The notes below the pieces were generated by a model. It was not told where the DNA came from and did not search any database. It saw nothing but the letters and a program-made list of their open reading frames with translations. 35,382 bases of DNA from Minisyncoccota bacterium (GTDB lineage Bacteria; Patescibacteriota; Minisyncoccia; Phycocordibacterales; UBA2100). This document shows positions 1-23,467 of this stretch, piece after piece. Location of the stretch: assembly GCA_041675105.1 (NCBI GenBank), contig JBAYUL010000001.1, positions 1 to 35,382 of the forward strand. The letters are read 5' to 3'. How positions within the stretch are numbered: position 1 is the stretch's first letter; every line of letters starts with the position of its first letter. The translations under genes and the position numbers were made by a program.

Positions 1-1
1 C

Positions 2-1672
2 TTGCGTCGTCAGACGATTTGTCCGAACGCGTGCTACAACGTTACGATATCGATCTCACTTTCGGGGCTCAGTCTTAAGCTCGTTACCACGACAAAGAAC
101 AAATGCCCAAACCCCGACTCGCTTGGCGGCGCCATAAAGAATGTCTACTCGCAGATGCAGGCGCCGAATGACATTCGTAACTGTTCGGCTGATGGCAAGG
201 GGCCGCCCAGTGTGACACTGGAGTCGACGCCAATACCGACGAAGCTTTCCACCGAGCGAACCGTTGGACCGAAATCGCGCTGTGATCCAAATATCCTTAC
301 GACCATAGACACTTTTTCCAAAGGCAACATAGATGGAGGTTTCAATGCAGCGAGCGCGCTGCAAGACCCGAGCACGGCGACGGAGGACCTTTCCGCAAAA
401 CAAACAACGCCGACACCCTTTATTGGTGCGACCAACGGGAACGAGTCGCTCCTCAGTGCGTTCCAGGCAGCGGGCCTGACGAGAGCAGAAGCGGAGGCGG
501 TGATTCAGAAAGATCCCGTAGAAGCGGTGAACTACATCAATGCCATCACGACGAATGACCAGGAGAAATTGGCCGAAAGCGCAAAGAAACTGGGTCTGAA
601 TCCCGACCTGTCGCAGATCGATTCTCTTGCGGTAAAGCAGGCAGCGGAAGCAGGTGCGCGTGCGAGCGATGAGGAATTCACGCCGGCACCGGGTTCGACA
701 GATGAGACGTTCGGTGCGGAGCGCAAGGATACCGACATTAACCGCGCAAAATGCGCTATCGCGACGATAGAGAGCGGCAGCTGCGGCGGGAATTATGGCA
801 CCGTCGGGCCGCCGACAAGGACGGGAGCGCGTGCATACGGGAAATATCAGGTCATGGATTTTAATATTCCCTCCTGGACGTCTCAGGCGTGCGGGCAAGC
901 AATGAATACCGAACAATTCCGCGCGGATGGTGATTGTCAGGAGAAAGTATTCGAAAAAGTGTACGGTGGCTACGTTTCGTCGTGCGGAAGCTATGAGGCG
1001 GCAGCATCAAAATGGTTCAGCGGCAGATGCAACATCACGAATTCGAACGATGGGTACCTTTCGGTGCCGGGATATGTCGGTAAATTCGCGAAGATCTTCG
1101 GCAGCGATAACATGCCGTTCGGTGCCGCTGGCGCTCCGTACACGGGCGGCGGCAGTCCTTTCGCCAACGTGAATCCGTTCAATTCGTCCGGCTATCAGGA
1201 CCAGGTGGTCTGTACCGGGACCGGATATTGCTACCTGAGCAACTACGGCTCTTCATATCCGGGCCCGGTATCAACGGGATACCCGGTATCGACGGGCGCC
1301 CCCGTTTCGACCGGAAACCCGGTTTCGACAGGGCCTGTAGCGCAGCCGACTATTCCGAATCCGGTCATGCCGACAGGTACCGGTGTAGGGACCATTCCCG
1401 TTCCGGTCACTCCCGTCGCCGTTCTTCTGGTGCAGCCAAAAACGATCCGAAAAGGCGGGACCGCCAGCGTATCGTGGTCAAGCGTGGGAATGTCTGGCGA
1501 CCTGCCGTGCCAGCTTTTTTCCGGCACTTCATTTATCGCTCAAGGCAATGGCGGTTCTCGCAATTTCGATACTGCCGCCATCTCGGCAAGCAGCACCGTG
1601 ACCTTTACGCTGCAGTGTTTCTCCCTCTCGAACACACGAGTGCAGAAGACGGCAACGCTCCTCGTCGAATAA
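2..1672 (+). CDS. Secreted/cell-surface protein with a lysozyme-like (SLT-type transglycosylase) core, an xPVSTG repeat linker and a beta-rich C-terminal domain; probably 5'-partial
   Basis: Longest + ORF, open to the window edge; the TTG at 2 is unlikely to be the true start. 'CAIATIESGSCGGNYG...GARAYGKYQVM' resembles the catalytic Glu-Ser / G-x-Y-Q region of SLT/lysozyme-like enzymes. It is followed by a Gly/Pro-rich linker and a ~90-aa C-terminal domain. Confidence 0.6.
   Translation: MRRQTICPNACYNVTISISLSGLSLKLVTTTKNKCPNPDSLGGAIKNVYSQMQAPNDIRNCSADGKGPPSVTLESTPIPTKLSTERTVGPKSRCDPNILTTIDTFSKGNIDGGFNAASALQDPSTATEDLSAKQTTPTPFIGATNGNESLLSAFQAAGLTRAEAEAVIQKDPVEAVNYINAITTNDQEKLAESAKKLGLNPDLSQIDSLAVKQAAEAGARASDEEFTPAPGSTDETFGAERKDTDINRAKCAIATIESGSCGGNYGTVGPPTRTGARAYGKYQVMDFNIPSWTSQACGQAMNTEQFRADGDCQEKVFEKVYGGYVSSCGSYEAAASKWFSGRCNITNSNDGYLSVPGYVGKFAKIFGSDNMPFGAAGAPYTGGGSPFANVNPFNSSGYQDQVVCTGTGYCYLSNYGSSYPGPVSTGYPVSTGAPVSTGNPVSTGPVAQPTIPNPVMPTGTGVGTIPVPVTPVAVLLVQPKTIRKGGTASVSWSSVGMSGDLPCQLFSGTSFIAQGNGGSRNFDTAAISASSTVTFTLQCFSLSNTRVQKTATLLVE
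1261..1332 (+). repeat. 4 x 18-nt in-frame tandem repeat encoding (G/Y/A/N)PVSTG
   Basis: Read directly: GPVSTG YPVSTG APVSTG NPVSTG in the ORF 2..1672 frame. The nucleotide copies have diverged at synonymous positions. Confidence 0.85.
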
Positions 1673-1675
1673 GCT

Positions 1676-1975
1676 ATGGGATTTACCCGCAATAAGGAGA
1701 ATTTTGTCTGCGGACATTGCGGCGCGGCGGTCGCCGGCGATGGATACACCAATCATTGTCCGCAGTGCTTATGGAGCAAGCACGTAGATGTCGATCCCGG
1801 TGACCGTATGGCAACATGCGACGGCCTCATGGAACCGGTGTCGCTCGAAGGATCGACCCCTGATTACGTGATTACACAGCGCTGTGTTCGCTGTGGCCAC
1901 GTTCGTCGCAACAAGCTGCAAACGGGCGATTCACCGGACGCCGTCATCGCGCTTGCAAAAAAACAGGCGCGGTAA
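1676..1975 (+). CDS. RNHCP-domain zinc-ribbon protein
   Basis: 99-aa ORF starting 4 nt after the upstream stop. Has Cys pairs CGHC / CPQC / CVRC and the 'YTNHCPQCLWSKH' signature typical of the RNHCP family. Confidence 0.75.
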   Translation: MGFTRNKENFVCGHCGAAVAGDGYTNHCPQCLWSKHVDVDPGDRMATCDGLMEPVSLEGSTPDYVITQRCVRCGHVRRNKLQTGDSPDAVIALAKKQAR

Positions 1976-1996
1976 TGTCACGGCTGCGCAATTTGA

Positions 1997-2002
1997 TATA
2001 CT
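1997..2002 (+). promoter_or_regulatory. -10-like box TATACT, 6 nt upstream of ATG 2009 (leaderless-type arrangement)
   Basis: Sequence gaTATACTagaagtATG; same geometry as at least 11 other genes in this window. Confidence 0.35.
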
Positions 2003-2008
2003 AGAAGT

Positions 2009-2155
2009 ATGGTACCGCAAGAAGAAGACAGAGGAGTCGAATCGGGCGAGGAAAGCGTCATCATCGATGGCAAGGAGGTCATCAAACATGTTGAACACGA
2101 AATCGATGGTATCGGTGAACCCGCTGCTCCGGAAGACGACATCGCCGGAGACTGA
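2009..2155 (+). CDS. Small acidic protein (48 aa), hypothetical
   Basis: Below the ORF-track size cut-off. Translated by hand: MVPQEEDRGVESGEESVIIDGKEVIKHVEHEIDGIGEPAAPEDDIAGD*. A TATACT box lies 6 nt upstream and the stop is 2 nt before the next gene's ATG (2158). It fills an otherwise empty 180-nt gap. Confidence 0.35.
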   Translation: MVPQEEDRGVESGEESVIIDGKEVIKHVEHEIDGIGEPAAPEDDIAGD

Positions 2156-2157
2156 GC

Positions 2158-2748
2158 ATGTCAAGAAAGATCTTCCTTTTACTGGGACATCCGGACCGTT
2201 CGGGCTTGTGCGGGGAATTCGCAGACGCATACGAAAAGGCCGCGCGCGCAGCGGGGCATACGGTCGACCGAATGAATATCGGAGAGATGCGTTTCGACCC
2301 GATATTGCATCGCGGTTACCGCGAGAGGCAGGAGCTTGAGCCGGATCTAGTGCGTTTTCAACAGCTCGTGACCAATGCGGAGCACTTTGTCATCGTACAT
2401 CCCATCTGGTGGGTGGGGATGCCCGCGATACTCAAGGGCCTGTTCGATCGCGCGTGGCTGCCCGGTTCGGCATTTCGATATATCAAAACGAAGCACGGTC
2501 ATCGGACCATATTTTGGCACCGCCTCTTTCGGGGCAGATCGGCCCGTATCATTGTGACGAGCGGCACGGCGCCGCTTTTGGTCCGCTTCCTGCCCGGCAA
2601 TGTGAATGCGGAGCTTAAATGGGGGATACTCTGGTTCTCAGGATTCAAAGTGCGCGCGTCGTGGTTCGGTCCCGCGGAGACGGCACACGAGGCGCGAAAG
2701 CAACACTGGTTGAAAAAAGTGAGCGAACTCGGACGCAAGGGGATATAA
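2158..2748 (+). CDS. Flavodoxin-like-fold NAD(P)H dehydrogenase (quinone)/FMN reductase family protein
   Basis: 'KIFLLLGHPDRSGLCGEFADAY' and 'HFVIVHPIWWVGMPAILKGLFDR' match the Flavodoxin_2 (KefF/MdaB/NQO-like) pattern. A GGAGAC SD lies ~7 nt upstream. Confidence 0.8.
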   Translation: MSRKIFLLLGHPDRSGLCGEFADAYEKAARAAGHTVDRMNIGEMRFDPILHRGYRERQELEPDLVRFQQLVTNAEHFVIVHPIWWVGMPAILKGLFDRAWLPGSAFRYIKTKHGHRTIFWHRLFRGRSARIIVTSGTAPLLVRFLPGNVNAELKWGILWFSGFKVRASWFGPAETAHEARKQHWLKKVSELGRKGI

Positions 2749-2773
2749 AAAAGGGCGACCTGGTCGGCCGCCC
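2747..2773 (-). terminator. Rho-independent terminator candidate for the small minus-strand ORF
   Basis: On the minus strand: GGGCG-(11 nt loop)-CGCCC followed by TTTTTTAT, about 30 nt downstream of the stop at 2811. Confidence 0.4.
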
Positions 2774-2810
2774 GTCGCAACGCCGGTACGTCTTCTTAGT
2801 GTCGCTGCCC

Positions 2811-2948
2811 TTATTGTGGAAAGCAAGCGTAGACGATAAGGGCAAGCGAGAGCGCGATGGCGGCCAATCCTGCAATGCCGCCGTAACTCCGGTCTTTGCG
2901 CAGAAACGGTGCCTTTTGAGTTCCCTCGATGCATCGCGGGGTGCTCAT
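2811..2948 (-). CDS. Small membrane protein (45 aa), hypothetical
   Basis: Not in the ORF track. Hand translation: MSTPRCIEGTQKAPFLRKDRSYGGIAGLAAIALSLALIVYACFPQ*. A strong SD (GGGAGG) lies 5 nt upstream of the ATG. Has one hydrophobic helix and a downstream terminator-like hairpin. Confidence 0.45.
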   Translation of the reverse strand: MSTPRCIEGTQKAPFLRKDRSYGGIAGLAAIALSLALIVYACFPQ

Positions 2949-3036
2949 GACGTCCTCCCTGCTTGAAGAGCCGACTCATCCGGTGAACCCAGAACGAGCG
3001 ACCAGCAAAACTATGGCATACACCCGACTTTTCCGC

Positions 3037-3042
3037 TAGTAT
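3037..3042 (+). promoter_or_regulatory. -10-like box TAGTAT, 6 nt upstream of ATG 3049
   Basis: ccgcTAGTATgtgccgATG; supports ATG 3049 over GTG 3043 as the ychF start. Confidence 0.35.
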
Positions 3043-3048
3043 GTGCCG

Positions 3049-4149
3049 ATGTCACTCTCAGTCGGTATCGTAGGTCTTCCAAACGTCGGAAAATCGACGC
3101 TTTTTAATGCATTGACGAAGAAAGGAGTACCAGCCGAAAATTATCCCTTCTGCACCATTGACCCCTCGGTCGGCGTCGTAGCGGTACCCGACCATCGTCT
3201 TCAGGCTCTCAGCAAGATGTCGAATACCCAGAAGATCGTTCCCGCTATCGTCGAGTTCGTGGATATCGCGGGTCTGGTCAAAGGAGCTTCGGAAGGGGAA
3301 GGGCTTGGGAATCAATTTTTGCAGCATATCCGCGAAGTGGATGCCATCGCTGAGGTGGTACGCATGTTCGATGACGAAGACGTGCATCACGTAGCGGGGC
3401 AAGTGGATCCGCTTCACGATATCGAGATCATCGATATGGAGCTGGTGCTCGCGGACCTACAATCGGTCGAGAAGCGACTCGACCGTGTTGAGCGCGACTC
3501 AAAGGGTGGAGATAAGGAATTGCTGGCAGAACGCGACGCACTTCTCAAAATAGTGCCCGCCCTTAAGGAAGGAAAGGCGGCGAGAACCGTAGAGCTGAAT
3601 GAAAAGGAACTTGCCGCGCTTCACACGCTCCATTTGCTTACAATGAAGCCGATCTTGTACGTACTCAACAGAAAGGCGGGTACCGTGAATGTGGATGCCG
3701 AGAATGGCGAGCGTTGGCGCGAGCTGAGAGATTTCTTCGACCGCGCACACGCGCAGTATGTGATCGTCGACGCGGGGGTGGAGAGCGATCTTTCCGATGT
3801 TCACGATGACGAGCGGCCTGATTTTCGACGCGAACTCGGAGTAGCGGACGATGGCATCGATGCGCTCATCAAGGGCAGCTATTCGTTGCTGAATCTTATT
3901 TCATACTTTACGACGGGTGAGAAAGAGACGCGCGCATGGACTATTACAAGAGGCGCGACCGCGCCGGAAGCAGGGGCAGCAATTCACACCGATTTTCGCG
4001 ATAAGTTCATCCGCGCAGAGGTGATCGCGTGGGACAAGCTGCTTGAGATCGGCTCATGGAGCGGAGCCCGCGACAAAGGTCAGATCCGTTCTGAAGGAAA
4101 AGAATACGTGGTCCAGGACGGGGATGTGATGGAGTTCAGACACAGCTAG
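3049..4149 (+). CDS. ychF: Ribosome-binding ATPase YchF (Obg-like GTPase family)
   Basis: 'VGIVGLPNVGKSTLFNALT' P-loop, 'FVDIAGLVKGAS' G3 motif and a C-terminal TGS-like 'FIRAEVIAWD...KGQIRSEGKEYVVQDGDVMEFR'. The ORF track starts at GTG 3043. Confidence 0.95.
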   Translation: MSLSVGIVGLPNVGKSTLFNALTKKGVPAENYPFCTIDPSVGVVAVPDHRLQALSKMSNTQKIVPAIVEFVDIAGLVKGASEGEGLGNQFLQHIREVDAIAEVVRMFDDEDVHHVAGQVDPLHDIEIIDMELVLADLQSVEKRLDRVERDSKGGDKELLAERDALLKIVPALKEGKAARTVELNEKELAALHTLHLLTMKPILYVLNRKAGTVNVDAENGERWRELRDFFDRAHAQYVIVDAGVESDLSDVHDDERPDFRRELGVADDGIDALIKGSYSLLNLISYFTTGEKETRAWTITRGATAPEAGAAIHTDFRDKFIRAEVIAWDKLLEIGSWSGARDKGQIRSEGKEYVVQDGDVMEFRHS

Positions 4150-4199
4150 AGAAACATACCGACCCATGGTCGTTGGCGGACGTAGAATATCATTAAGAA

Positions 4200-4224
4200 G
4201 ATCGCCCGCGGGCTGCGGGCGATC
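4200..4224. terminator. Perfect 10-bp hairpin between convergent genes
   Basis: GATCGCCCGC-gggct-GCGGCGATC-type perfect stem (4200-4209 pairs with 4215-4224). On the minus strand it is followed by TTCTTAAT; there is no T-run on the plus strand. Confidence 0.55.
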
Positions 4225-4235
4225 ACGTCGTGACA

Positions 4236-4592
4236 TCAGTCGCGAACATTGGATACGTCGGTGACCCTTGCCTCCACGCGCTGACAAAACCAATGCTCGT
4301 GAATGCGCGCGCTCACGATAAATGTTGCCTCAGGGGCAGCAATGGCAAGGTGCTTCTTGATCTCAGGCACCTCGATCATATAGGCTCTAATATGGAGACG
4401 CATCGCAGTTTTCCAGCCGAGGCACGAGCTTTCCACGAGCCTTGTCTTGTCCCAGTCGATCACACGATCTCTTCGCATCACGCTCGGTGCAACTAGCCAC
4501 GAGTGCGTAAACTGAGGTTCTGAGTCTGGGGGTTGAGCGCAGCTTGTGACGATCAGCGCGATGCTTAGCGACGCTGCTTGGAGTAGGCGCAT
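4236..4592 (-). CDS. Hypothetical lipoprotein
   Basis: N-terminal signal peptide with lipobox 'LIVTS-C' (MRLLQAASLSIALIVTSC). A GGGG SD-like element lies ~9 nt upstream. No recognisable domain. Confidence 0.6.
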   Translation of the reverse strand: MRLLQAASLSIALIVTSCAQPPDSEPQFTHSWLVAPSVMRRDRVIDWDKTRLVESSCLGWKTAMRLHIRAYMIEVPEIKKHLAIAAPEATFIVSARIHEHWFCQRVEARVTDVSNVRD

Positions 4593-4789
4593 GGGAGTTT
4601 CCCCGTATGTTGAGTGATTTCCGCACAGATGAAATCACGACGTGCACAACGTGTCAAGTGTGTGGTGCCTCGTTCGGAGAAGAGGTTGGGTAATGGCCGT
4701 AATTCACCTGCTCGCACTTAAATAGACCGAGGAAAAACCGCGGACTATCGTCAAGCAGTGTGCAATGTATGAGGCAAATGGTGTGAAGG

Positions 4790-4827
4790 CAAAAAATTGG
4801 GTCCCCGGCACGAGCAGCGCCGGGGAC
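4790..4827 (-). terminator. Rho-independent terminator of the OMP gene
   Basis: 9-bp stem GTCCCCGGC / GCCGGGGAC (4801-4809 / 4819-4827). On the minus strand it is followed by CCAATTTTTTG, 25 nt after the stop at 4852. Confidence 0.7.
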
Positions 4828-4851
4828 TTTATTGATTCGCTCGCGCTGCGA

Positions 4852-5586
4852 TCAGAGCGAGAACTTCCAGAGCGCGTAGGCCAGCACCTTGTCGACATCG
4901 GCCTTGATGTCGTGGCGGAACGTGTACAGATTGTCCGCGGTGCTCGACTTGAGCGCTGTGTAGTAGCCCTTCTGGTACTCGAAGCCGAAAACGAGGTAGT
5001 CGAACGGCGCGTACTTGAAGCCGGCGAGCAGCATCGGGCCGACGGCGCCGTAATCGTTGCACGTCGTCGAGTTGTAGCCGGGGAAGCTGAACCGCTCGCA
5101 TGCCGACAGCACGCCGTAGTTCAGGCCGCCGCCGACGTAGAGCGCGTAGCGATTGAAGGCGACGCCGATCGTGCCAGCAGCGGTGCCGGACCACTTGAGC
5201 GAGGTCGAAAGCAGGTCGCTGTAGCCGCAGCCGGTGCACGCGAGTTCCTTGGAACCGGTGATGTTCGACTTCTCGTAGGCGACGAATGCGCCGACGACGA
5301 GCCATTGCCACTGGTAGTCGAATCCGGCGCGGACGCCAAAGAAACGGCCCTTCATGTCGAACGAATTATCGGTGGCCCCGGAGAAGGCCGGGAAGCCGGA
5401 ATAATTGTAACTCGACGTGTCGGAATTGTTGGCGGCCGCGGTGCCGCCGTAGGCGCCGATGGTGATGCCGGTCCAGCTGAACGGAGCAGTGCTCTGATAG
5501 CCTTTGGTGAGGTCGGCGGCGGAAGCGGCGGAACACGAAGCGATGAGCGCAGCGGCCGCAATTGCGGTTTTGAGCCGTGAAAGCAT
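4852..5586 (-). CDS. Outer-membrane beta-barrel protein, Omp25/Omp31-like (OMP_b-brl type)
   Basis: Signal peptide ending 'ASAADL', 'APFSWTGITIGAYGG', repeated amphipathic beta-strand pattern ('GVRAGFDYQW', 'ALYVGGGLNYG', 'LLAGFKYAP', 'LVFGFEYQKG') and an aromatic C-terminus 'LWKFSL'. A GGGGGA SD is present. Codon third positions are strongly G/C. Confidence 0.8.
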   Translation of the reverse strand: MLSRLKTAIAAAALIASCSAASAADLTKGYQSTAPFSWTGITIGAYGGTAAANNSDTSSYNYSGFPAFSGATDNSFDMKGRFFGVRAGFDYQWQWLVVGAFVAYEKSNITGSKELACTGCGYSDLLSTSLKWSGTAAGTIGVAFNRYALYVGGGLNYGVLSACERFSFPGYNSTTCNDYGAVGPMLLAGFKYAPFDYLVFGFEYQKGYYTALKSSTADNLYTFRHDIKADVDKVLAYALWKFSL

Positions 5587-5711
5587 GCTATTTCCCCCAT
5601 ATGGAGTACGTTAAGATCAGGAAGCCGGGATGGCAGTCCAGCGTCTATTATAGCATATCATTGACATAGCGTCAATAATCACGCCTGCAAAGTTAGCTCG
5701 CAATAGAGCGC

Positions 5712-5717
5712 TATACT
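5712..5717 (+). promoter_or_regulatory. -10-like box TATACT, 6 nt upstream of ATG 5724
   Basis: gcgcTATACTagtggcATG. Confidence 0.4.
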
Positions 5718-5723
5718 AGTGGC

Positions 5724-6677
5724 ATGGAAAAACCAAAAGTAACACCTAAGGACTTCGTGTTCTGGGTCGGGGCTATGGCCGCGCTCTACGGCGGCGTCGT
5801 TTCTTTTATCACCCTTATATTCGATTACATAAATCACGCATATCCGAATCCTGTGACGGGTGGGTATTACTATGATCCGTATTCGAGCAGCATCAGTTAT
5901 GAGACGGCGTCTCTCATCGTGCTCGCACCTGTATTCCTATTGCTCATGCGTCTCATACGCCGCGATATCGCGAACGATCCGACGAGGGGCGATATATGGA
6001 TCCGTCGCTGGGCACTTTTTCTCACACTGTTTCTCGCGGGTGCGACAATGGTCGTGGACCTCATCGTCCTACTGAATGCGTATCTGCAAGGAGAGGACCT
6101 CACGGTCGGTTTCTTGCTGAAAGTGCTCACGGTACTTCTCGTCGCCGGCCTTGGCTTCATGCACTTCATGGCGGATCTGTGGGGGTATTGGGAACGTGAG
6201 CGAGCGCGTGCGCGAATGGTCAATTGGGGAGTCGCCGTACTTGTTGTCTTTACGATAGTCGCCGGATTCTTTATTGTCGGCACTCCACAGCAAATGCGTC
6301 ATCTGAAACAGGACGCGCAGCGAGTACAGGATCTCCAGAATCTACAGTGGCAGGTGGTGAGTTATTGGCAACAGAAGCAAAAGCTTCCGACCACGCTCGA
6401 GCAGTTGAACGATCCGATAACGAACTACATCGTGCCGGTGGATCCGCAGACGAGGGAATCATACGAATACAAGTCAACGGGCGCGCTTGCGTTCCAGCTG
6501 TGCGCGACGTTCGCAGAGGTCGGCAACAGTGCGAATGATGGGCGCTCTGTCGCCAAGCCGGTAAGCGTCGACGGGGAGATCGCGCAAGACAATTGGCAGC
6601 ACGCGGCCGGTGATGTGTGTTTCGACCGCACCATAGATCCTGAGCGCTACCCTCCATTTAGCAAACAGACAAAATAG
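5724..6677 (+). CDS. DUF5671-type multi-pass membrane protein with an extracytoplasmic C-terminal domain
   Basis: 'KDFVFWVGAMAALYGGVVSFITLIFDYINHAYPN...YYYDPYSS...IRRWALFLTLFLAGATMVVDLIVLL' matches the DUF5671 pattern common in Parcubacteria, recalled from memory and not searched. Confidence 0.75.
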   Translation: MEKPKVTPKDFVFWVGAMAALYGGVVSFITLIFDYINHAYPNPVTGGYYYDPYSSSISYETASLIVLAPVFLLLMRLIRRDIANDPTRGDIWIRRWALFLTLFLAGATMVVDLIVLLNAYLQGEDLTVGFLLKVLTVLLVAGLGFMHFMADLWGYWERERARARMVNWGVAVLVVFTIVAGFFIVGTPQQMRHLKQDAQRVQDLQNLQWQVVSYWQQKQKLPTTLEQLNDPITNYIVPVDPQTRESYEYKSTGALAFQLCATFAEVGNSANDGRSVAKPVSVDGEIAQDNWQHAAGDVCFDRTIDPERYPPFSKQTK

Positions 6678-18324: not shown

Positions 18325-18352
18325 ATGTCGCACAATATATCTTTTGCGACGT
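18325..18352. other. dif-like / tyrosine-recombinase core-type site (11-6-11): ATGTCGCACAA|TATATC|TTTTGCGACGT, left junction of the element
   Basis: The arms are inverted repeats (inner 9 nt match 8/9; 11 nt match 9/11) around a 6-bp spacer. The spacer plus right arm form the 15-bp direct repeat. Confidence 0.6.
18336..18350 (+). repeat. Direct repeat copy 1 (TATATCTTTTGCGAC)
   Basis: Identical 15-mer at 23128-23142. Confidence 0.9.
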
Positions 18353-18363
18353 ATAGCCATCTG

Positions 18364-18387
18364 CAAAAAGGGGTTGATTCTACCCCT
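18364..18387 (-). terminator. Rho-independent terminator at the end of the element's last gene
   Basis: Minus strand: AGGGGT-agaatca-ACCCCT followed by TTTTTG. It overlaps the stop codon at 18386-18388. Confidence 0.6.
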
Positions 18388-18808
18388 AAGCTCGAACCAG
18401 CTTGTCGTGCTGATAGCTACTAAGACCTACTGCTTGCGGTGCGGGACACAAATGCCCTCTCGCGTGGTGATACCGTAATAATCCCCTAAGCGATCGCAAT
18501 GCTCTGTCTTCTGCGTACTTAGTCGTCTCTTGCTCCTTCAGATACCGTTCAAAGGCTCTTAAATGGCGTATTTCGATCTCCCCCACATCTGAAATATCGG
18601 CAAACCGAGCAAACCTCGTCAGAATGGGTTTTTCCATTGGAGCCATCGTAGGAGCTGTCAGAACCTTATGACTAAGGTAATCCTGTATCTGCGATTCAAT
18701 TACGCGCTCTTTAAAGCGTCCTAACAGGCTAATTCGATTGATCATGTTCATTATGACTTGAGTCAAGGAGCTAAAGATTATTTTACATGAGAATTGAGCC
18801 GTCTGCAT
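18386..18808 (-). CDS. Stand-alone protein resembling the N-terminal SAM-like (core-binding) domain of tyrosine recombinases; no catalytic domain
   Basis: 'IEIRHLRAFERYLKEQETTKYAEDRALRSLRGLLRYHHARGHL' fits the Phage_integrase_N/SAM-like helix pattern. The ORF ends with its own terminator 36 nt from the element border, so there is no room for an RHRY catalytic domain. Confidence 0.5.
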   Translation of the reverse strand: MQTAQFSCKIIFSSLTQVIMNMINRISLLGRFKERVIESQIQDYLSHKVLTAPTMAPMEKPILTRFARFADISDVGEIEIRHLRAFERYLKEQETTKYAEDRALRSLRGLLRYHHARGHLCPAPQAVGLSSYQHDKLVRA

Positions 18809-18810
18809 AT

Positions 18811-19578
18811 CTATTCCTTTGACCCTTTAAACACACGGTGCCGGCAATTGCCCAGATACCGAGAGTAATACTGCTCGTCCGTCAGAACTTCCTCACCATT
18901 CAGCTCGTCTAAGAGAGACCAAAGTGATGACGTTCCTCGCGAAATGAATGGACGCAAGACATTCCTAGATGCCACATATGATTTCTGGTTTCTTAATCGG
19001 GGATCGGTGAAAGCTTTCGCCATATATTTTGCAAGGTAGTTGGCTATCTTGATATGCCCGTCAGTTTTTTTGTAGTAAACGAATCCCATACCCCATTTCA
19101 TTGCGATTGTTCGAGTAGTCCGTTCTTGTGATACCACCTCCTCGGGTAGCCCCCAGAACAAACTGTGAAAATGAACAGCTCCACGTTTTTGGAATTCAGG
19201 GACGGCAATGTACTTGAATGATTTGCCGTAGCTGTAGCGGAGAGCTTGGTTAAAAGCGCGGAGACGTTTGTATCCGTAAGAGAGATCGGTAATGATATCT
19301 TTGCAGGTAAGAGTAATGAGTACAGGAAGTTCAGATCCGACAAGGTTAGCTTCGACCAGTCTTCTAAAATCCATTTTTGCGCGTCGCGAATGATCGTGTC
19401 TTTTCCCCAACTTCCCTTTCGATACAGAATTGCCTCCATCAGCTCCCAAATCCACATTTGAAGCGTTAGTCTCACGTTTTGGTGATGGGCGTCTTCGTCG
19501 ATCCACCACCCTTGGTTCTCGTTGGTATTCATATATTTCTGTTTTATTCCCGTATTGAATTACTTTGTTGTAGCCCAT
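18811..19578 (-). CDS. HUH-superfamily rolling-circle replication initiator (two-tyrosine, phiX174 gpA-like)
   Basis: Motif 1 'VLITLT' (19320-19306), motif 2 HUH 'AVHFHSLFW' (HFH at 19173-19165), motif 3 'NYLAKYMAK' = YxxKY (19038-19024). Start set at ATG 19578, because the upstream part of the ORF-track call overlaps a terminator and a hairpin. Confidence 0.8.
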   Translation of the reverse strand: MGYNKVIQYGNKTEIYEYQREPRVVDRRRRPSPKRETNASNVDLGADGGNSVSKGKLGKRHDHSRRAKMDFRRLVEANLVGSELPVLITLTCKDIITDLSYGYKRLRAFNQALRYSYGKSFKYIAVPEFQKRGAVHFHSLFWGLPEEVVSQERTTRTIAMKWGMGFVYYKKTDGHIKIANYLAKYMAKAFTDPRLRNQKSYVASRNVLRPFISRGTSSLWSLLDELNGEEVLTDEQYYSRYLGNCRHRVFKGSKE

Positions 19579-19600: not shown

Positions 19601-19676
19601 GAGTGGCGCGTATAGCAAGTCTGGACAGCCGGCCGCGGCGCTAAAGCGCCTGCGGCACGCCTGTCCGGCGCCACTC
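19601..19676. other. 76-nt GC-rich composite stem-loop upstream of rep: candidate double-strand origin / nick site
   Basis: Outer stem GAGTGGCGC/GCGCCACTC (19601-19609/19668-19676), middle stem GGACAG/CTGTCC (19623-19628/19661-19666), inner ~12-bp GC stem with TAAA loop. A 13-nt asymmetric internal loop reads AGACTTGCTATAC on the rep strand. Confidence 0.5.
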
Positions 19677-19686
19677 CCCTCTCTCT

Positions 19687-19715: not shown

Positions 19716-19750
19716 TGCTACAGAACGAGAACCAAGTGTATGGGAACGTT

Positions 19751-20635
19751 TTAACTTTGTTTTGACTCGTCCGAATCTTCGCCAAAAACAAGGCGATATC
19801 CCACTTGAGCGACATTGTGGAGCACGTCGAGCTTCAGTTTCTCCTTGATGCCTTGAATGATCGGATACAGATCCATTCGATCTGTTTTCGTAGGTTCAGT
19901 CCGATTAGGGTAAGCTGCCCGTATAAGATCAGCGTGCGAAGCCTGCATATCAGGACTCTCACACAGGGCAAGTAGCACCTTAAACTCCTTTGATGAGGGC
20001 GTGAAAGTTCCTCGGACATCGCTGAGGACGAAGTCTCCTGTACGGCGGTTGAGGAGTAGAGGGCATTCTTTAGCCGGAGGCTCTTTGGGTGCTTCCATTT
20101 TGGGCAACTTCTCAACCTCTGCAAGGAGCATCAAATGAAACTGTTTTAGCCTATTCTCGAATGATTCACGATTCGCATATCGGCGGGCAAGCCGCTTTAG
20201 ATTCTCCCTGCCCCATTTTGTGGGTGATCTCTTTGCATATTCGGGGTTGATATTCTCGACGCCTTTCATCATGACAAGAGCTTCGGGGTATAAATCATAC
20301 TCAGGCTCGTTGATAGCGTTTTTATAGTCCTCAAGTGGGTCATACACCCATGCTTCAGTAAAACAACCGACGGCATAGAGACTAAAGCGCTCAAGTCGAT
20401 CTGTGCGTTCTGCCCTATCATCAGCCTCCTCGTCAGTTAGTTTGTGATCACGTTCCCATACGGCAATGTGCTTTTCTCGAAGTTCGTTTTCGCTCGCCTC
20501 ATAAAGCCCGTGCAAGACAGGGTCTTTAATTACAAGGTCAAAATAGTGATGTAGGTTTTGATAGAACCTCGAATTGTTGTCGCTCTCGAACACAGCATCG
20601 TAGCGGATTTTTAGGGACTCTTGCAGATTAATCAT
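19751..20635 (-). CDS. Protein with C-terminal OmpR/PhoB-type winged-helix DNA-binding domain; N-terminal ~190 aa unknown
   Basis: C-terminus 'FTPSSKEFKVLLALCESPDMQASHADLIRAAYP...TDRMDLYPIIQGIKEKLK...AQVGYRLVF' follows the Trans_reg_C pattern. There is no receiver domain. Confidence 0.6.
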   Translation of the reverse strand: MINLQESLKIRYDAVFESDNNSRFYQNLHHYFDLVIKDPVLHGLYEASENELREKHIAVWERDHKLTDEEADDRAERTDRLERFSLYAVGCFTEAWVYDPLEDYKNAINEPEYDLYPEALVMMKGVENINPEYAKRSPTKWGRENLKRLARRYANRESFENRLKQFHLMLLAEVEKLPKMEAPKEPPAKECPLLLNRRTGDFVLSDVRGTFTPSSKEFKVLLALCESPDMQASHADLIRAAYPNRTEPTKTDRMDLYPIIQGIKEKLKLDVLHNVAQVGYRLVFGEDSDESKQS

Positions 20636-20644
20636 ATAGGCCTT

Positions 20645-21991
20645 TTACGGCAGGTCCATTTGTCGATTTATTTCGTCAACCCACGCAGAGGCAAGCAGTT
20701 TAAGATTTGCCATATTGTCTGCACCTTGCTCAAGAAACCTTTCGAGATAATCCAATGCTTCTGAAGGATTTTGTAATTTTCGATAGTACAAAAAGCCAAT
20801 CCAAAAAAGCAGCTGAGGTCTTCGGTCGCCGTCAGCAATCATCTTTTTCGAGAAATTAATGCTGTCATTCGAAATGCGAGTATCTCCTTCAGAGGTGTGC
20901 CGTTCAAGACTCCTACAGACTCGTTGTGCATGGTCAAAGTCTTCATTCACCAGGAGCAAAAATGCTCTGTTAAATTTCCACGTGACGTCTCCGGTAGGCG
21001 CTGCTCGTTCCGCGATATCCGTTGTTTCTAGTGCGGCACTAGCGTCATTATCATATTTAAACTCGATTATAGAACGCAGAATAAGAGCGGAATAATTGCG
21101 CTGCGCGATTGTTAACGCCGCTCCCACTTCTTCTCGTGCCTCATCCAGCCTGCCTGCATTAAAGGCCGCGATTCCTTTAACAGCGTGGGCGTCACTAATA
21201 ACATTGTCCAATTTGGAATATATTGCTTGAACATTCGGTGCCAAGGGCTTAGGGAGGGCCGCAATTTCCTCTTTTAAGCGAGTATGTAGATTCAGCGTAG
21301 AGTCGGGTTTACCCGAGATAAGTGCGGCAACGCCAGTAATGTATCTGACTGTGTAATAAATCATATCTCCCGCTATTTCTGAGGCGTGGAACGACATATC
21401 TTCGGTAAACTGCAGACGCACTGGCAATGCTTCTCGGAAATCTCGCGAGAGTTTACTGCCGATGTTTATAGAAACTGGACGATGTGAGACGTAGCCTTCG
21501 AGATCAAGATAGGTGAAGGCTCCCCTATGGCGTGCAAAACCCCAAATCCATATATCGCCTCTAGTTTTTCTATTCCGCCTTGCGATATTCCCCCCGTTAA
21601 CAGTTCTAGCGAAATGTTCTGGCAGATCAATCACATGCGTTGAATCACTAATTCCGCCAGTAACTAGGTCGGCTCGGAGCTTCCTCATCAGGTCACTTTT
21701 CAATACTTCTGCCGACGGGTCATGTTCGGTTGAGATAGAGATTACTATATTCAACCTGTCTCTTTTCTTTCTCGGTAGCCGGAATCTGCCAAACAACCAG
21801 ATAGCAATGAATATAGACACGGTTGCAACGTCAAAATAGAACAAATACTGCTTCGGAAGAAAGGCGTTTAAGATCACGCTGTTTAAGGTTCCTAGAACAA
21901 GCATGATTAATACCACCCAGCCAATAAGCGCCTTGAAGCCATAAAACGGCCTCAACCAACTGACGATTTCCTCGGCAAACTTATCGGGCAT
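20645..21991 (-). CDS. Membrane protein: two N-terminal TM helices, unknown central domain, C-terminal TPR-like repeats
   Basis: Hydrophobic helices 'ALIGWVVLIMLVLGTLNSVILNAF' and 'VATVSIFIAIWLFG'. C-terminal helical repeats ('GIAAFNAGRLDEAREEVGAALTIAQ', 'FWIGFLYYRKLQNPSEALDYLERFLEQ'). The stop is 9 nt before the next gene's ATG. Confidence 0.6.
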   Translation of the reverse strand: MPDKFAEEIVSWLRPFYGFKALIGWVVLIMLVLGTLNSVILNAFLPKQYLFYFDVATVSIFIAIWLFGRFRLPRKKRDRLNIVISISTEHDPSAEVLKSDLMRKLRADLVTGGISDSTHVIDLPEHFARTVNGGNIARRNRKTRGDIWIWGFARHRGAFTYLDLEGYVSHRPVSINIGSKLSRDFREALPVRLQFTEDMSFHASEIAGDMIYYTVRYITGVAALISGKPDSTLNLHTRLKEEIAALPKPLAPNVQAIYSKLDNVISDAHAVKGIAAFNAGRLDEAREEVGAALTIAQRNYSALILRSIIEFKYDNDASAALETTDIAERAAPTGDVTWKFNRAFLLLVNEDFDHAQRVCRSLERHTSEGDTRISNDSINFSKKMIADGDRRPQLLFWIGFLYYRKLQNPSEALDYLERFLEQGADNMANLKLLASAWVDEINRQMDLP

Positions 21992-22049
21992 TGCCGAATC
22001 CTACTGCTCATGAAGGTTTGACACAACTACAGAACATGCCAGAAAACGC

Positions 22050-22082
22050 AAAACCACTCTTTCAGGTGGCCCTATGTCTAAC
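22050..22082 (-). repeat. 33-nt hairpin-containing repeat, copy A (terminator-like; between the cargo genes)
   Basis: AAAACCACTCTTTCAGGTGGCCCTATGTCTAAC, 29/33 identical to 23045-23077. On the minus strand the CCACCTgaaaGAGTGG hairpin is followed by TTTTGCGTTTT. Confidence 0.7.
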
Positions 22083-22113
22083 GCGCCTTTAAAACACGAA
22101 GAATAGTAGAATT

Positions 22114-23109
22114 TTAAGCCTGCTGAGCACGTGCCTCAAGCCAAAGAGGTAGAAGTGCATTCTTCTTTGCTTTTATATCCTTGAGCCAGTCCCTGAAATC
22201 CTTACGGTGCTCCTCTTTCAAAATATGTGCATCCACGAAGTCTAAGAAGTACGCCGTAGTGCCTAGGCCTAAGCTGGCCAGCCAAAAACGCTCACGACCC
22301 ATACCGTGTTTCAAATAAGGATTTCCATGCACGATCTCGGAAACGTAAGAATAAATTTCATATTGCTTTTTTGCGCCAAACACCGTCGCTGCTCTTTTCG
22401 AAAACGACGTCATTTTCTCTTCTGTTAGTACCTCCCTCCAGGGCGGAATGAGGAGTTTTCGATCTCGCAGCCAATAAAAATCAAACTCCGAATGCTTCCT
22501 GGGGTAATCTGGCATCTCTCTGACTAGCAGGGACTCGTTTAAGGCTAAAAGTACCTCGAAACCTCTTATATCGGGAACTAAATGAAAAGTCCGTAGCTGA
22601 TAGGTCAAAATGATCAATGCCCTCCGGTCCTCGCTCATTATTGAAGTGTCGTGGACATAGAGATTTCGAGCATAAATGTCCATCAACGCTCTGAGAGTCG
22701 ATAGTCTAAAGAATGATTTATCATCTTCAAGACGTAAGAACTCATCTGCAATAAAACTCAAATACTGGGAATAAACTTCTAGAGATTTAACACGAAACTG
22801 ATTGAAAAGTATCGCAACAGGATCATCTCTCTGATCAGGATGCTGCGCGTGTTCGTGGATTTGTTTTGCTCTCGCATCGAGCATGATAACGCCGCTCCGC
22901 ATAGACGCCGCATAGCCCTCAAAAACTGAGTCTTCCTCCCTAACCATGATCTCATTATACATATATGCGACTAACCGGTTCCTAAAATAAATCACACCAA
23001 ATTTCGTCCCGTTGTCGTCCCACATGGGGAATATGCTTAAGCATAAAACCACCCTTTCGGGTGGCCCTATGTTTAGCTCCTTGAAGGCTTTTAAGTGTAT
23101 TTTCGTCAT
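22114..23109 (-). CDS. Hypothetical protein (331 aa as called; true start may be ATG 23025)
   Basis: Long AT-rich ORF with no TM segment and no motif I can assign. Codons 10-21 are encoded by repeat copy B, which raises doubt about the 5' end. Confidence 0.6.
   Translation of the reverse strand: MTKIHLKAFKELNIGPPERVVLCLSIFPMWDDNGTKFGVIYFRNRLVAYMYNEIMVREEDSVFEGYAASMRSGVIMLDARAKQIHEHAQHPDQRDDPVAILFNQFRVKSLEVYSQYLSFIADEFLRLEDDKSFFRLSTLRALMDIYARNLYVHDTSIMSEDRRALIILTYQLRTFHLVPDIRGFEVLLALNESLLVREMPDYPRKHSEFDFYWLRDRKLLIPPWREVLTEEKMTSFSKRAATVFGAKKQYEIYSYVSEIVHGNPYLKHGMGRERFWLASLGLGTTAYFLDFVDAHILKEEHRKDFRDWLKDIKAKKNALLPLWLEARAQQA
23045..23077 (-). repeat. 33-nt hairpin-containing repeat, copy B
   Basis: AAAACCACCCTTTCGGGTGGCCCTATGTTTAGC. 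On the minus strand: CCACCC-gaaa-GGGTGG (6-bp stem, GAAA loop) followed by TTTTAT. Confidence 0.7.
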
Positions 23110-23116
23110 CCCCTAT

Positions 23117-23144
23117 CATTCTCGTTCTATATCTTTTGCGACAC
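23117..23144. other. Hybrid (half) core site at the right junction: CATTCTCGTTC|TATATC|TTTTGCGACAC
   Basis: The spacer and right arm are identical to the left-junction site. The left arm is unrelated to ATGTCGCACAA. Confidence 0.55.
23128..23142 (+). repeat. Direct repeat copy 2 (TATATCTTTTGCGAC)
   Basis: Identical 15-mer at 18336-18350. Confidence 0.9.
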
Positions 23145-23329
23145 GTAGGCCTAGGCACATCGGCCTGATATAGTTTACACATCCGGCTGTGAGTTGCCTG
23201 TCCGGATACTGGCCGCTGTAGGCCAGTGAGTGTTGAGCCATGTTTGTCTTGAATGTCGGATCCCGCGTTGGGATTCGATCCCCTAGACTTGCCCCATACA
23301 CCGGTCGTCGGTCGCGGGGCTTTTTCTTT
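23143..23329 (+). ncRNA. Candidate structured RNA or long structured 3' UTR ending in a terminator (family unknown)
   Basis: No convincing ORF. Adjacent perfect hairpins ATCCGG-N15-CCGGAT (23181-23207) and ACTGGCC-gctgta-GGCCAGT (23208-23227), then GGATCCC/GGGATTC pairing and a terminator with a T-run on the plus strand only. Confidence 0.25.
23291..23329 (+). terminator. Rho-independent terminator candidate (plus strand)
   Basis: GCCCC...ACCG-gtcgt-CGGT...GGGGC composite hairpin followed by TTTTTCTTT. Confidence 0.5.
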
Positions 23330-23467
23330 GCTATGCTATGAGGAGCTGGTGCCGGACACTGCGTCCCGCGCCAGCAGTACAGCGGCTGTCGCTGTTGCCC
23401 CTATACTTTTTCAATACAATCTTCGATTGTCACGAAAAAGTCCCTAGGGGCTGTTTCTATGGCGGTC

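Follow-up and report, generated by a model that had tools for sequence, protein, structure and literature searches.

Do three closely packed genes on a small integrated element of an ultra-small bacterium form one molecular system, or is each there on its own account? The question is raised by a 35,382-nucleotide stretch of DNA from a Minisyncoccota bacterium (GenBank assembly GCA_041675105.1, contig JBAYUL010000001.1, positions 1 to 35,382; hereafter the window), in which three minus-strand open reading frames (ORFs) encode proteins of 331, 448 and 294 amino acids (aa). They are housed in a 4.8-kb low-GC island (∼4807 bases; GC ∼45% versus 55% in the flanks) and occupy 3359 of its bases (70%), which bears out the tight, co-oriented packing described in an earlier annotation of the locus, the original prediction. 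That annotation went on to propose the trio as an uncharacterised system. Our analysis leads to a different view: the 3.36-kb block is probably a mosaic, in which one backbone gene of regulator type stands next to two accessory genes that are independent of each other. The integrated 4.8-kb element that carries it replicates by the rolling-circle mode and belongs to Paceibacterota, a lineage of the Candidate Phyla Radiation (CPR).

The evidence that carries this reading is the company kept by the 294-aa gene. Its homologues, of which a word-index search of 5.8 billion proteins returned seven (42-58% identity) and a metagenome scan added more, recur in a set order: a 294-aa-type winged helix-turn-helix (wHTH) gene, a small gene, a gene for a HUH rolling-circle replication protein (Rep) and then, usually, one for a large serine recombinase. 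At least 10 further CPR loci, independent of one another, have this backbone. The order is complete through the serine recombinase in L001, L002, L005, L019 and L021, and likewise in L020, where the small gene was undetected; it is kept up to an early contig end in L007, L008, L009 and L017 (L003 and L004 are identical to L002, and L006 is grouped with L005). The small gene of these sibling elements encodes 67-86 aa and starts MQ(G/D)F(S/L)FS, the Reps match REP_ORF2-G2P (PF23343) or Phage_CRI, and the serine recombinases are ∼490-575 aa long. Sibling elements of ∼4 kb contain the backbone genes alone. Because the same Rep-linked order is found in independent loci, the 294-aa gene is, as judged from gene order, part of the element backbone and not cargo. 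The earlier statement that none of the three genes is needed for replication or integration thus cannot be maintained for the 294-aa gene, whose Rep neighbour is conserved in related elements.

In the window, the wHTH gene stands directly upstream of a homologous HUH Rep gene, and the intergenic hairpin and the motif GACTTGCTAWA are both present; an intact small gene and a large serine recombinase gene abutting a tRNA gene are absent. The window Rep (PF23343, E=1.3e-16; phrog_3419, E=1.3e-24; weak Pfam/NCBIfam RepSA match) shares 52-58% identity with its counterparts in L002, L008 and L009, and the wHTH-Rep spacer can be aligned at the DNA level, including the conserved hairpin and GACTTGCTAWA. 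These alignments place the window element in the CPR rolling-circle integrative family, of which a literature search found no description. The spacer contains a GC-rich hairpin (DNA fold z=-5.8) and, after it, GACTTGCTATA, a sequence that four elements share shortly before the ATG of rep and that resembles the nick site CTTG^ATA of origins of the phiX174/pC194 type. Hairpin and GACTTGCTATA together form a candidate double-strand origin and nick site. The small-gene start codon lies within a conserved hairpin, CCCTGC...GCAGGG. Comparison with the small genes of L002 (8940-9146), L008 (3438-3662) and L009 (2830-3033) reveals that the window copy has been cut to 39 aa by an internal deletion of ∼100 nucleotides (nt), which covers the conserved N-domain.

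Profile comparison and structure prediction together confirm that the C-terminus of the 294-aa protein is a winged helix of the OmpR/PhoB/ToxR type. Pfam Trans_reg_C (PF00486) reaches 20.0 bits against it, under the gathering score of 26.2, and matches four of the eight family members at E≤1 (best 1.4e-4); among PDB sequences, the family profile matches the DNA-binding domain of AdeR (E=0.0025). In the AlphaFold model (pLDDT 81.7) the N-domain is all-helical, and a Foldseek search fits its last ∼93 residues to the DNA-binding domains of dozens of OmpR-family entries, with target-normalised TM-scores of 0.55-0.69 and an rmsd of 3.4-4.5. A receiver domain was not found in Pfam or PDB, so that the original description of a winged helix without receiver holds. 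The N-domain has no relative by structure or sequence. A lead to PbeC from PADLOC was discarded for this domain: the match is confined to one of the eight family members, at 14.4 bits, and is therefore treated as chance.

The family has 52 invariant columns, nearly all of them within the N-terminal 175 residues, and a variable wHTH. Such a distribution would be expected if a shared domain for effector function or oligomerisation were fused to a DNA-recognition domain specific to each element. Its position and fold suggest that the 294-aa protein is the element's own DNA-binding regulator, in which the variable OmpR/ToxR-type winged helix would read element-specific sites and the conserved helical N-domain would serve oligomerisation or partner contact. 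The regulator would act on how the rep(-recombinase) genes downstream of it are expressed. In L021 (6061-7686) the wHTH homologue is shorter, at 235 aa, and is separated from the small gene by an opposite-strand ORF of 157 aa (beginning ...YKTEYHIVWTPRYRRK), which on visual inspection may be a TnpA of the IS200/IS605 type.

The genes upstream of the wHTH gene are different in each element, and several of the sibling slots are filled by restriction-type enzymes, TIR proteins or HTH regulators (Table 1). One cargo gene of L019, the LexA/S24/methyltransferase fusion, is of unusual architecture. In GC profiles, the cargo of L002, L005 and L019 shares a low-GC island with the backbone; in L020 the GC content is low throughout, and for want of compositional contrast the limits of its element are undefined. 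No 331- or 448-like gene was found in the sibling elements (L001-L009; L017-L027). Horizontally acquired genes of Patescibacteria are reported to be enriched in defence functions (PMC12455944), and a defence or conflict role for the 331- and 448-aa genes is plausible by context only. PADLOC-DB 2.0 has no hit for either protein and, for the 331-aa family, gives only scattered single matches at E≥0.002. There is no credible PADLOC match to a known defence family.

The limits of the 331-aa gene are themselves in question. Its homologues align from aa ∼55-58 onward only, and in the AlphaFold model, built on the family alignment, residues 58-331 are all-alpha with pLDDT above 90 (pTM 0.81), against a pLDDT of 47-66 for residues 1-57. 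A 31-nt repeat, ACATAGGGCCACCYGAAAGRGTGGTTTT, has exactly two copies in the window, where 0 are expected, one on each side of the core of this gene. Copy A folds into a strong hairpin inside codons ∼12-22 of the annotated ORF (-20.6 kcal/mol, z=-4.5); copy B falls in the gap that separates the 331-aa stop codon from the 448-aa gene. Since the hairpin copies flank the homology core, we place the probable start at M50 (22962) or M55 (22947) and treat the gene as its own hairpin-bracketed unit. As far as alignment and model can tell, the annotated ORF is probably over-extended, its first ∼50 codons being noncoding. The gene would then be a self-contained cassette between two terminator-like hairpins, coding for a protein of ∼277-282 aa, and the copy A hairpin would close a long operon in the circular form of the element.

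A word-index search with the 331-aa protein returned only the protein itself. A HMMER scan of 1.84 billion representatives recovered 67 proteins, with E-values below 1e-10 for 46; almost all have lengths of 265-300 aa, and they align to residues ∼58-328. The 331-aa protein had been described as showing no motif that could be placed, a description that no longer stands: a 45-sequence alignment of the family shows invariant R140, S257, H261, W276 and W323 and the motif SExxHGNPY, and the family is linked to DUF5677. The protein itself matches no Pfam family at E≤1, and hence falls below the DUF5677 gathering score. Pfam DUF5677 (PF18928) does match nine of the 45 family members at E≤1. P0069 scores 36.1 bits against this profile (cut-off 27.1; profile positions 32-153 of 166) and is connected to the window protein at E=2.4e-6. 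By this transitive link, the 331-aa protein is a member of a DUF5677-like family of ∼275-aa proteins. Searching PDB by sequence gives nothing for the protein or its family, and Foldseek searches of the model against PDB and BFVD return only helical-bundle or G-protein-coupled-receptor-like noise (TM-score <0.35; BFVD <0.3). A HEPN RNase was considered and rejected: in RNLYVH (aa 148-153) neither R nor H is invariant across the 45 sequences, and Foldseek finds no HEPN fold.

Elsewhere, genes of the 331-aa family stand alone. A scan of GTDB species genomes with 12 family sequences yields seven loci, all in CPR (Saccharibacteria or Paceibacteria), and at none of them does the gene have a 448-like, 294-like or Rep-like neighbour. 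Three of the seven have neighbours of conflict type (Table 1). The original expectation that cargo on such elements is often conflict-related is indirectly supported by these loci and by the defence genes in the sibling slot, and finds no direct support in PADLOC. DUF5677 is reported to be enriched beside serine recombinases (2025 preprint, PMC12632615). As a member of a family whose genes are solitary elsewhere, often in surroundings that resemble defence islands, the 331-aa protein would most likely act alone in a conflict role, be it defence, exclusion or addiction. In L012 a homologue (4133-5591) has ClpB on one side and tRNA-Tyr/tRNA-Trp on the other, with miaA and parB nearby. The same chromosomal neighbourhood holds rolling-circle/serine-recombinase elements in L001, L002 and L005, which suggests a shared integration hot-spot in Paceibacteria.

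The 448-aa protein begins with hydrophobic helices at aa 15-46 and 49-68, followed by RFRLPRKKRDR, and carries tetratricopeptide repeats (TPRs) above the Pfam cut-offs: TPR_2 at aa 267-298 (28.6 bits, cut-off 27) and TPR_14 at aa 402-435 (29.0 bits, cut-off 23.5). The two N-terminal transmembrane (TM) helices and the TPRs of the original prediction are thereby confirmed. The bulk of the protein is predicted to be cytoplasmic. Its gene ends 9 nt before the 294-aa gene, whose ATG is preceded by AAGG. No relatives were found by word-index search of the 5.8 billion proteins, by tblastn against phages and plasmids, in IMG/VR, among PDB sequences or in the loci fetched. A likeness of its central or TM region to TIR or 8xMP proteins was tried with phmmer --max against the sibling ThsB_TIR, 8xMP and TM proteins and abandoned, all scores being negative. 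The 448-aa protein would thus be a lineage-specific, membrane-anchored cytoplasmic TPR protein in the slot directly upstream of the wHTH gene, and it most likely serves as an accessory of exclusion or abortive-infection type, or as a membrane sensor feeding the regulator.

The siblings carry a tRNA gene, encoded on the opposite strand, that adjoins or overlaps the serine recombinase gene at its 3′ end (Table 1), which indicates that these elements integrate at tRNA genes. The window element has neither a serine recombinase nor a tRNA gene, and in their place are a 140-aa SAM-like ORF and a palindromic site; no tRNA or Rfam gene was found in the window at the insertion site. A 15-nt direct repeat, TATATCTTTTGCGAC, flanks the island at 18336 and 23128. 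The palindrome of the left repeat (18327-18350) is dif-like, and the right copy (23117-23142) retains just the central region and one arm. The 140-aa ORF has no catalytic domain, and its resemblance to a XerD/SAM-like N-domain is faint. Palindrome and ORF are compatible with use of a host tyrosine recombinase. The window copy may use another integration route than its siblings, or may be decaying.

Table 1. Positions of features in the window, and contents of related loci (positions in loci labelled L are those of the locus).
Feature	Position	Strand	Content or basis
331-aa ORF, accessory gene 1	22114..23109	minus	Conserved DUF5677-like all-alpha core, aa ∼58-331
448-aa protein, accessory gene 2	20645..21991	minus	N-terminal 2-TM hairpin, ∼190-aa middle domain, C-terminal TPR
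294-aa backbone protein	19751..20635	minus	Helical N-domain aa 1-175, disordered linker, wHTH aa ∼190-285
Small-gene remnant, 39 aa	19586..19705	minus	67-86 aa in sibling elements
GC-rich hairpin then GACTTGCTATA, candidate double-strand origin and nick site	19611..19680	minus	DNA fold, alignment
HUH rolling-circle Rep, 255 aa counted from M80 of long ORF	18811..19578	minus	
140-aa protein, weak tyrosine-recombinase SAM-like/XerD N-terminal resemblance	18386..18808	minus	
Left end, palindromic core GTCGCACAA-TATATC-TTTTGCGAC	18327..18350	plus	15-nt direct repeat within
15-nt direct repeat TATATCTTTTGCGAC, right copy	23128..23142	plus	
Hairpin repeat copy A, 31 nt, ACATAGGGCCACCCGAAAGGGTGGTTTT, terminator-like	23045..23075	minus	RNA fold
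Hairpin repeat copy B	22050..22080	minus	90% identical, stem weakened
L005 slot			880-aa Mrr_cat_2/ResIII/Helicase_C enzyme, 24 nt upstream of wHTH gene
L002 and L008 slot			Xre-type HTH
L018 slot			Xre gene ∼1 kb upstream, opposite-strand ORF intervening
L019 cargo	1-5936		Mrr_cat+STAND NTPase, 863 aa; 8xMP next to ThsB_TIR; LexA-DNA-binding/Peptidase_S24/N6_N4 methyltransferase fusion, 447 aa; RE_BsaWI
L020 cargo			MmeI_N, Xre, ThsB_TIR and TM protein
tRNA-Trp beside recombinase 3′ end	L001 11669-11740; L002 11404-11475; L005 11678-11749		
tRNA-Gln beside recombinase 3′ end	L019 9295-9366; L021 10356-10427		
tRNA-Glu beside recombinase 3′ end	L020 9379-9453		
331-family locus L010			Neighbours: two N6_N4 methyltransferases and DUF4268
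331-family locus L013			Neighbours: Fic, EcoRI methylase, AIPR, GmrSD_N-HNH
331-family locus L014			Neighbours: AAA_15/AAA_21 ATPase and nucleotidyltransferase

With these results in hand, the alternatives to a mosaic can be weighed. A single three-component defence or abortive-infection system, in which a sensor with TPRs, an effector in the membrane and a regulator of wHTH type work together, would fit the packing and shared orientation of the genes, the 9-nt gap between the 448- and 294-aa genes and the defence cargo of sibling elements. We consider it very improbable nonetheless: the three genes co-occur nowhere else, neither at the loci of 294-aa homologues nor at the seven loci of the 331-aa family, the 294-aa gene is linked to Rep instead, a terminator-like hairpin parts the 331-aa from the 448-aa gene, and PADLOC offers no match. 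The missing co-occurrence and the tie of the 294-aa gene to Rep are the reasons why we do not read the three genes as a system, and on this point we depart from the original prediction, which had itself named a failure of the three to co-occur as an outcome that would refute it. A pairing of two of the genes has somewhat more to be said for it. Here the 448-aa protein would be the signal-sensing partner of the wHTH regulator, in the manner of ToxS with ToxR or of an anti-activator, and would make the element's replication or excision depend on a cue from the envelope or from infection. Translational coupling is suggested by the 9-nt spacing, the wHTH fold is closest to the DNA-binding domains of ToxR and OmpR, and TPR domains are protein-protein interaction modules; an Xre-type regulator is found upstream of the wHTH gene in L002 and L008 and, ∼1 kb upstream, in L018. 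The 448-aa protein is, however, unique to the window element, the wHTH family works without it elsewhere, and in L005 a restriction-type enzyme occupies the same position, which makes the pairing rather unlikely.

Two further alternatives concern the nature of the element as a whole. It could be an integrated small single-stranded DNA (ssDNA) phage, with the 331- and 448-aa proteins as virion or morphogenesis proteins, given that its Rep is of the inovirus/plectrovirus G2P/ORF2 family (PF23343; phrog_3419) and that 4.8 kb falls within the ssDNA phage size range. A match to phage structural or morphogenesis proteins had been named in the original prediction as an outcome that would speak against a defence system; none was found. 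None of the three proteins has a PHROGs hit or a relative on the viral contigs of IMG/VR, and the 331-aa model has no match in BFVD (TM-score <0.3). Moreover, members of the 331-aa family are solitary chromosomal genes beside restriction-modification genes, neither a Zot-like ATPase nor a small coat-protein gene is seen, and the ∼4-kb siblings hold the backbone only, all of which makes an integrated phage extremely unlikely. The element could also be a decaying, immobilised remnant with two accessory ORFs that are non-functional passengers. The internal deletion of ∼100 nt in the small backbone gene, the absence of the family's serine recombinase and the lack of detectable relatives of the 448-aa protein point in this direction. 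They have to be set against the intactness of all five ORFs, among them one of 1347 nt with a supra-threshold TPR, against a 331-aa core that folds confidently and keeps all family-invariant residues, and against a conserved Rep and ori-like region and a clean terminal direct repeat. On balance we hold a remnant of this kind to be unlikely.

The mosaic reading has its own difficulties. No Rep follows the homologue in L018 or in L024/L025, where the homologue consists of the N-domain only, so the wHTH-Rep linkage is strong, not absolute. The window element has no serine recombinase and a truncated small gene, and for these reasons it may be a decaying copy with non-functional cargo. Relatives of the 448-aa protein were sought by word-index search and tblastn, and for the 331-aa protein the word-index search had failed to recover any of the 66 distant relatives; the ORFan status of the 448-aa protein is therefore provisional. 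As to a conflict role, four of the seven 331-family loci are without obvious defence neighbours, and one DUF5677 ORF tried in E. faecalis versus six phages is absent from the five ORFs reported as protective (PMC12632615). The functions we infer for the three proteins derive from homology, fold and position, and that of the 294-aa regulator from fold and position, its N-domain being without relatives.

Some further features of the element and its surroundings are recorded here. The sequence GTTCTRTA has five copies in the window, where ∼1 is expected, and four of these are within the 4.8-kb element (19719-19726, 21068-21075 and 22028-22035 on the minus strand; 23124-23131 on the plus strand). 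Of these sites, one precedes the 448-aa gene, another the ori/rep region and a third is at the right att site, and a 13-mer, TTCTCGTTCTRTA, is common to two of them. GTTCTRTA is a candidate operator. Within the 5′ half of rep, a +1-frame ORF of 141-161 aa is open in the window (19098-19532, minus strand), L002, L008 and L009, with its ATG close to Rep codons 9-18. Across elements its identity is 46-77%, similar to the 54-72% of the Rep frame over the same bases, and the +2 frame is closed. Open +1 stretches of 156-175 aa occur in L017 and L019 as well. The +1 ORF is a candidate overlapping gene. To the right of the element, in a gene-free 300 nt, positions 23254-23335 (plus strand) give a sub-threshold match to Rfam suhB/mmgR (24.8 bits versus a gathering score of 41, E=0.0043). 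This stretch contains the T-arm-like GGGATTCGATCCCC, and ARAGORN finds neither tRNA nor tmRNA there.

How does the element compare with known systems? Like the actinomycete elements of the pSAM2 type, it is small and integrative, with an HUH Rep for rolling-circle replication and a regulator upstream of rep, and in this family as in pSAM2 a recombinase gene lies downstream of rep; the sibling elements also share integration into tRNA genes. The position of the element's regulator would be analogous to that of korSA/pra, the regulators upstream of repSA-xis-int in pSAM2-type elements. The differences are the CPR host, the siblings' large serine recombinase in place of a tyrosine integrase, the lack of a conjugation gene and a wHTH unrelated in sequence to Pra/KorSA; in the window copy, neither type of recombinase is complete. 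The weak RepSA match is the one computed part of the comparison with pSAM2. The siblings also resemble the serine-recombinase-associated defence islands (RADS; PMC12632615) in that they put restriction-modification, ThsB-TIR, Mrr-STAND and MmeI genes beside a large serine recombinase, whereas the window element lacks such a recombinase and its 331-aa protein is only a distant DUF5677 relative. With DUF5677 (PF18928) this protein shares an all-alpha fold, a similar size and overlapping family members; it differs in having no Pfam match of its own and in that all recovered loci of its branch are from CPR. The C-terminal ∼95 aa of the 294-aa protein superpose on the domains of ToxR, NsrR, PhoB, OmpR and AdeR and keep the VGYRL wing motif; the protein is unlike response regulators in having no receiver, and unlike ToxR in having no TM segment.

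What is found is ordinary mobile-element mosaicism, and its novelty is modest. A more far-reaching interpretation is conceivable, though we put it forward tentatively: the CPR-specific DUF5677-like protein, the 2TM-TPR ORFan or both may be new single-gene anti-phage or anti-plasmid effectors, borne on undescribed tRNA- or dif-targeting rolling-circle elements that shuttle defence genes among ultra-small bacteria under a new class of regulator that combines a novel helical domain with an OmpR-type wHTH. CPR bacteria have tiny genomes, mostly lack CRISPR as reported and are largely uncultured, and how they acquire and exchange defence genes is poorly known. In this setting, the 294-aa proteins are a defined and testable regulator family. 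The most interesting by-product of the analysis is the recurrent CPR rolling-circle element family itself, in which the four backbone genes are fixed while cargo is exchanged in a slot that in siblings holds restriction, Thoeris-like TIR and STAND genes; it provides a concrete vehicle for defence-gene traffic in CPR.

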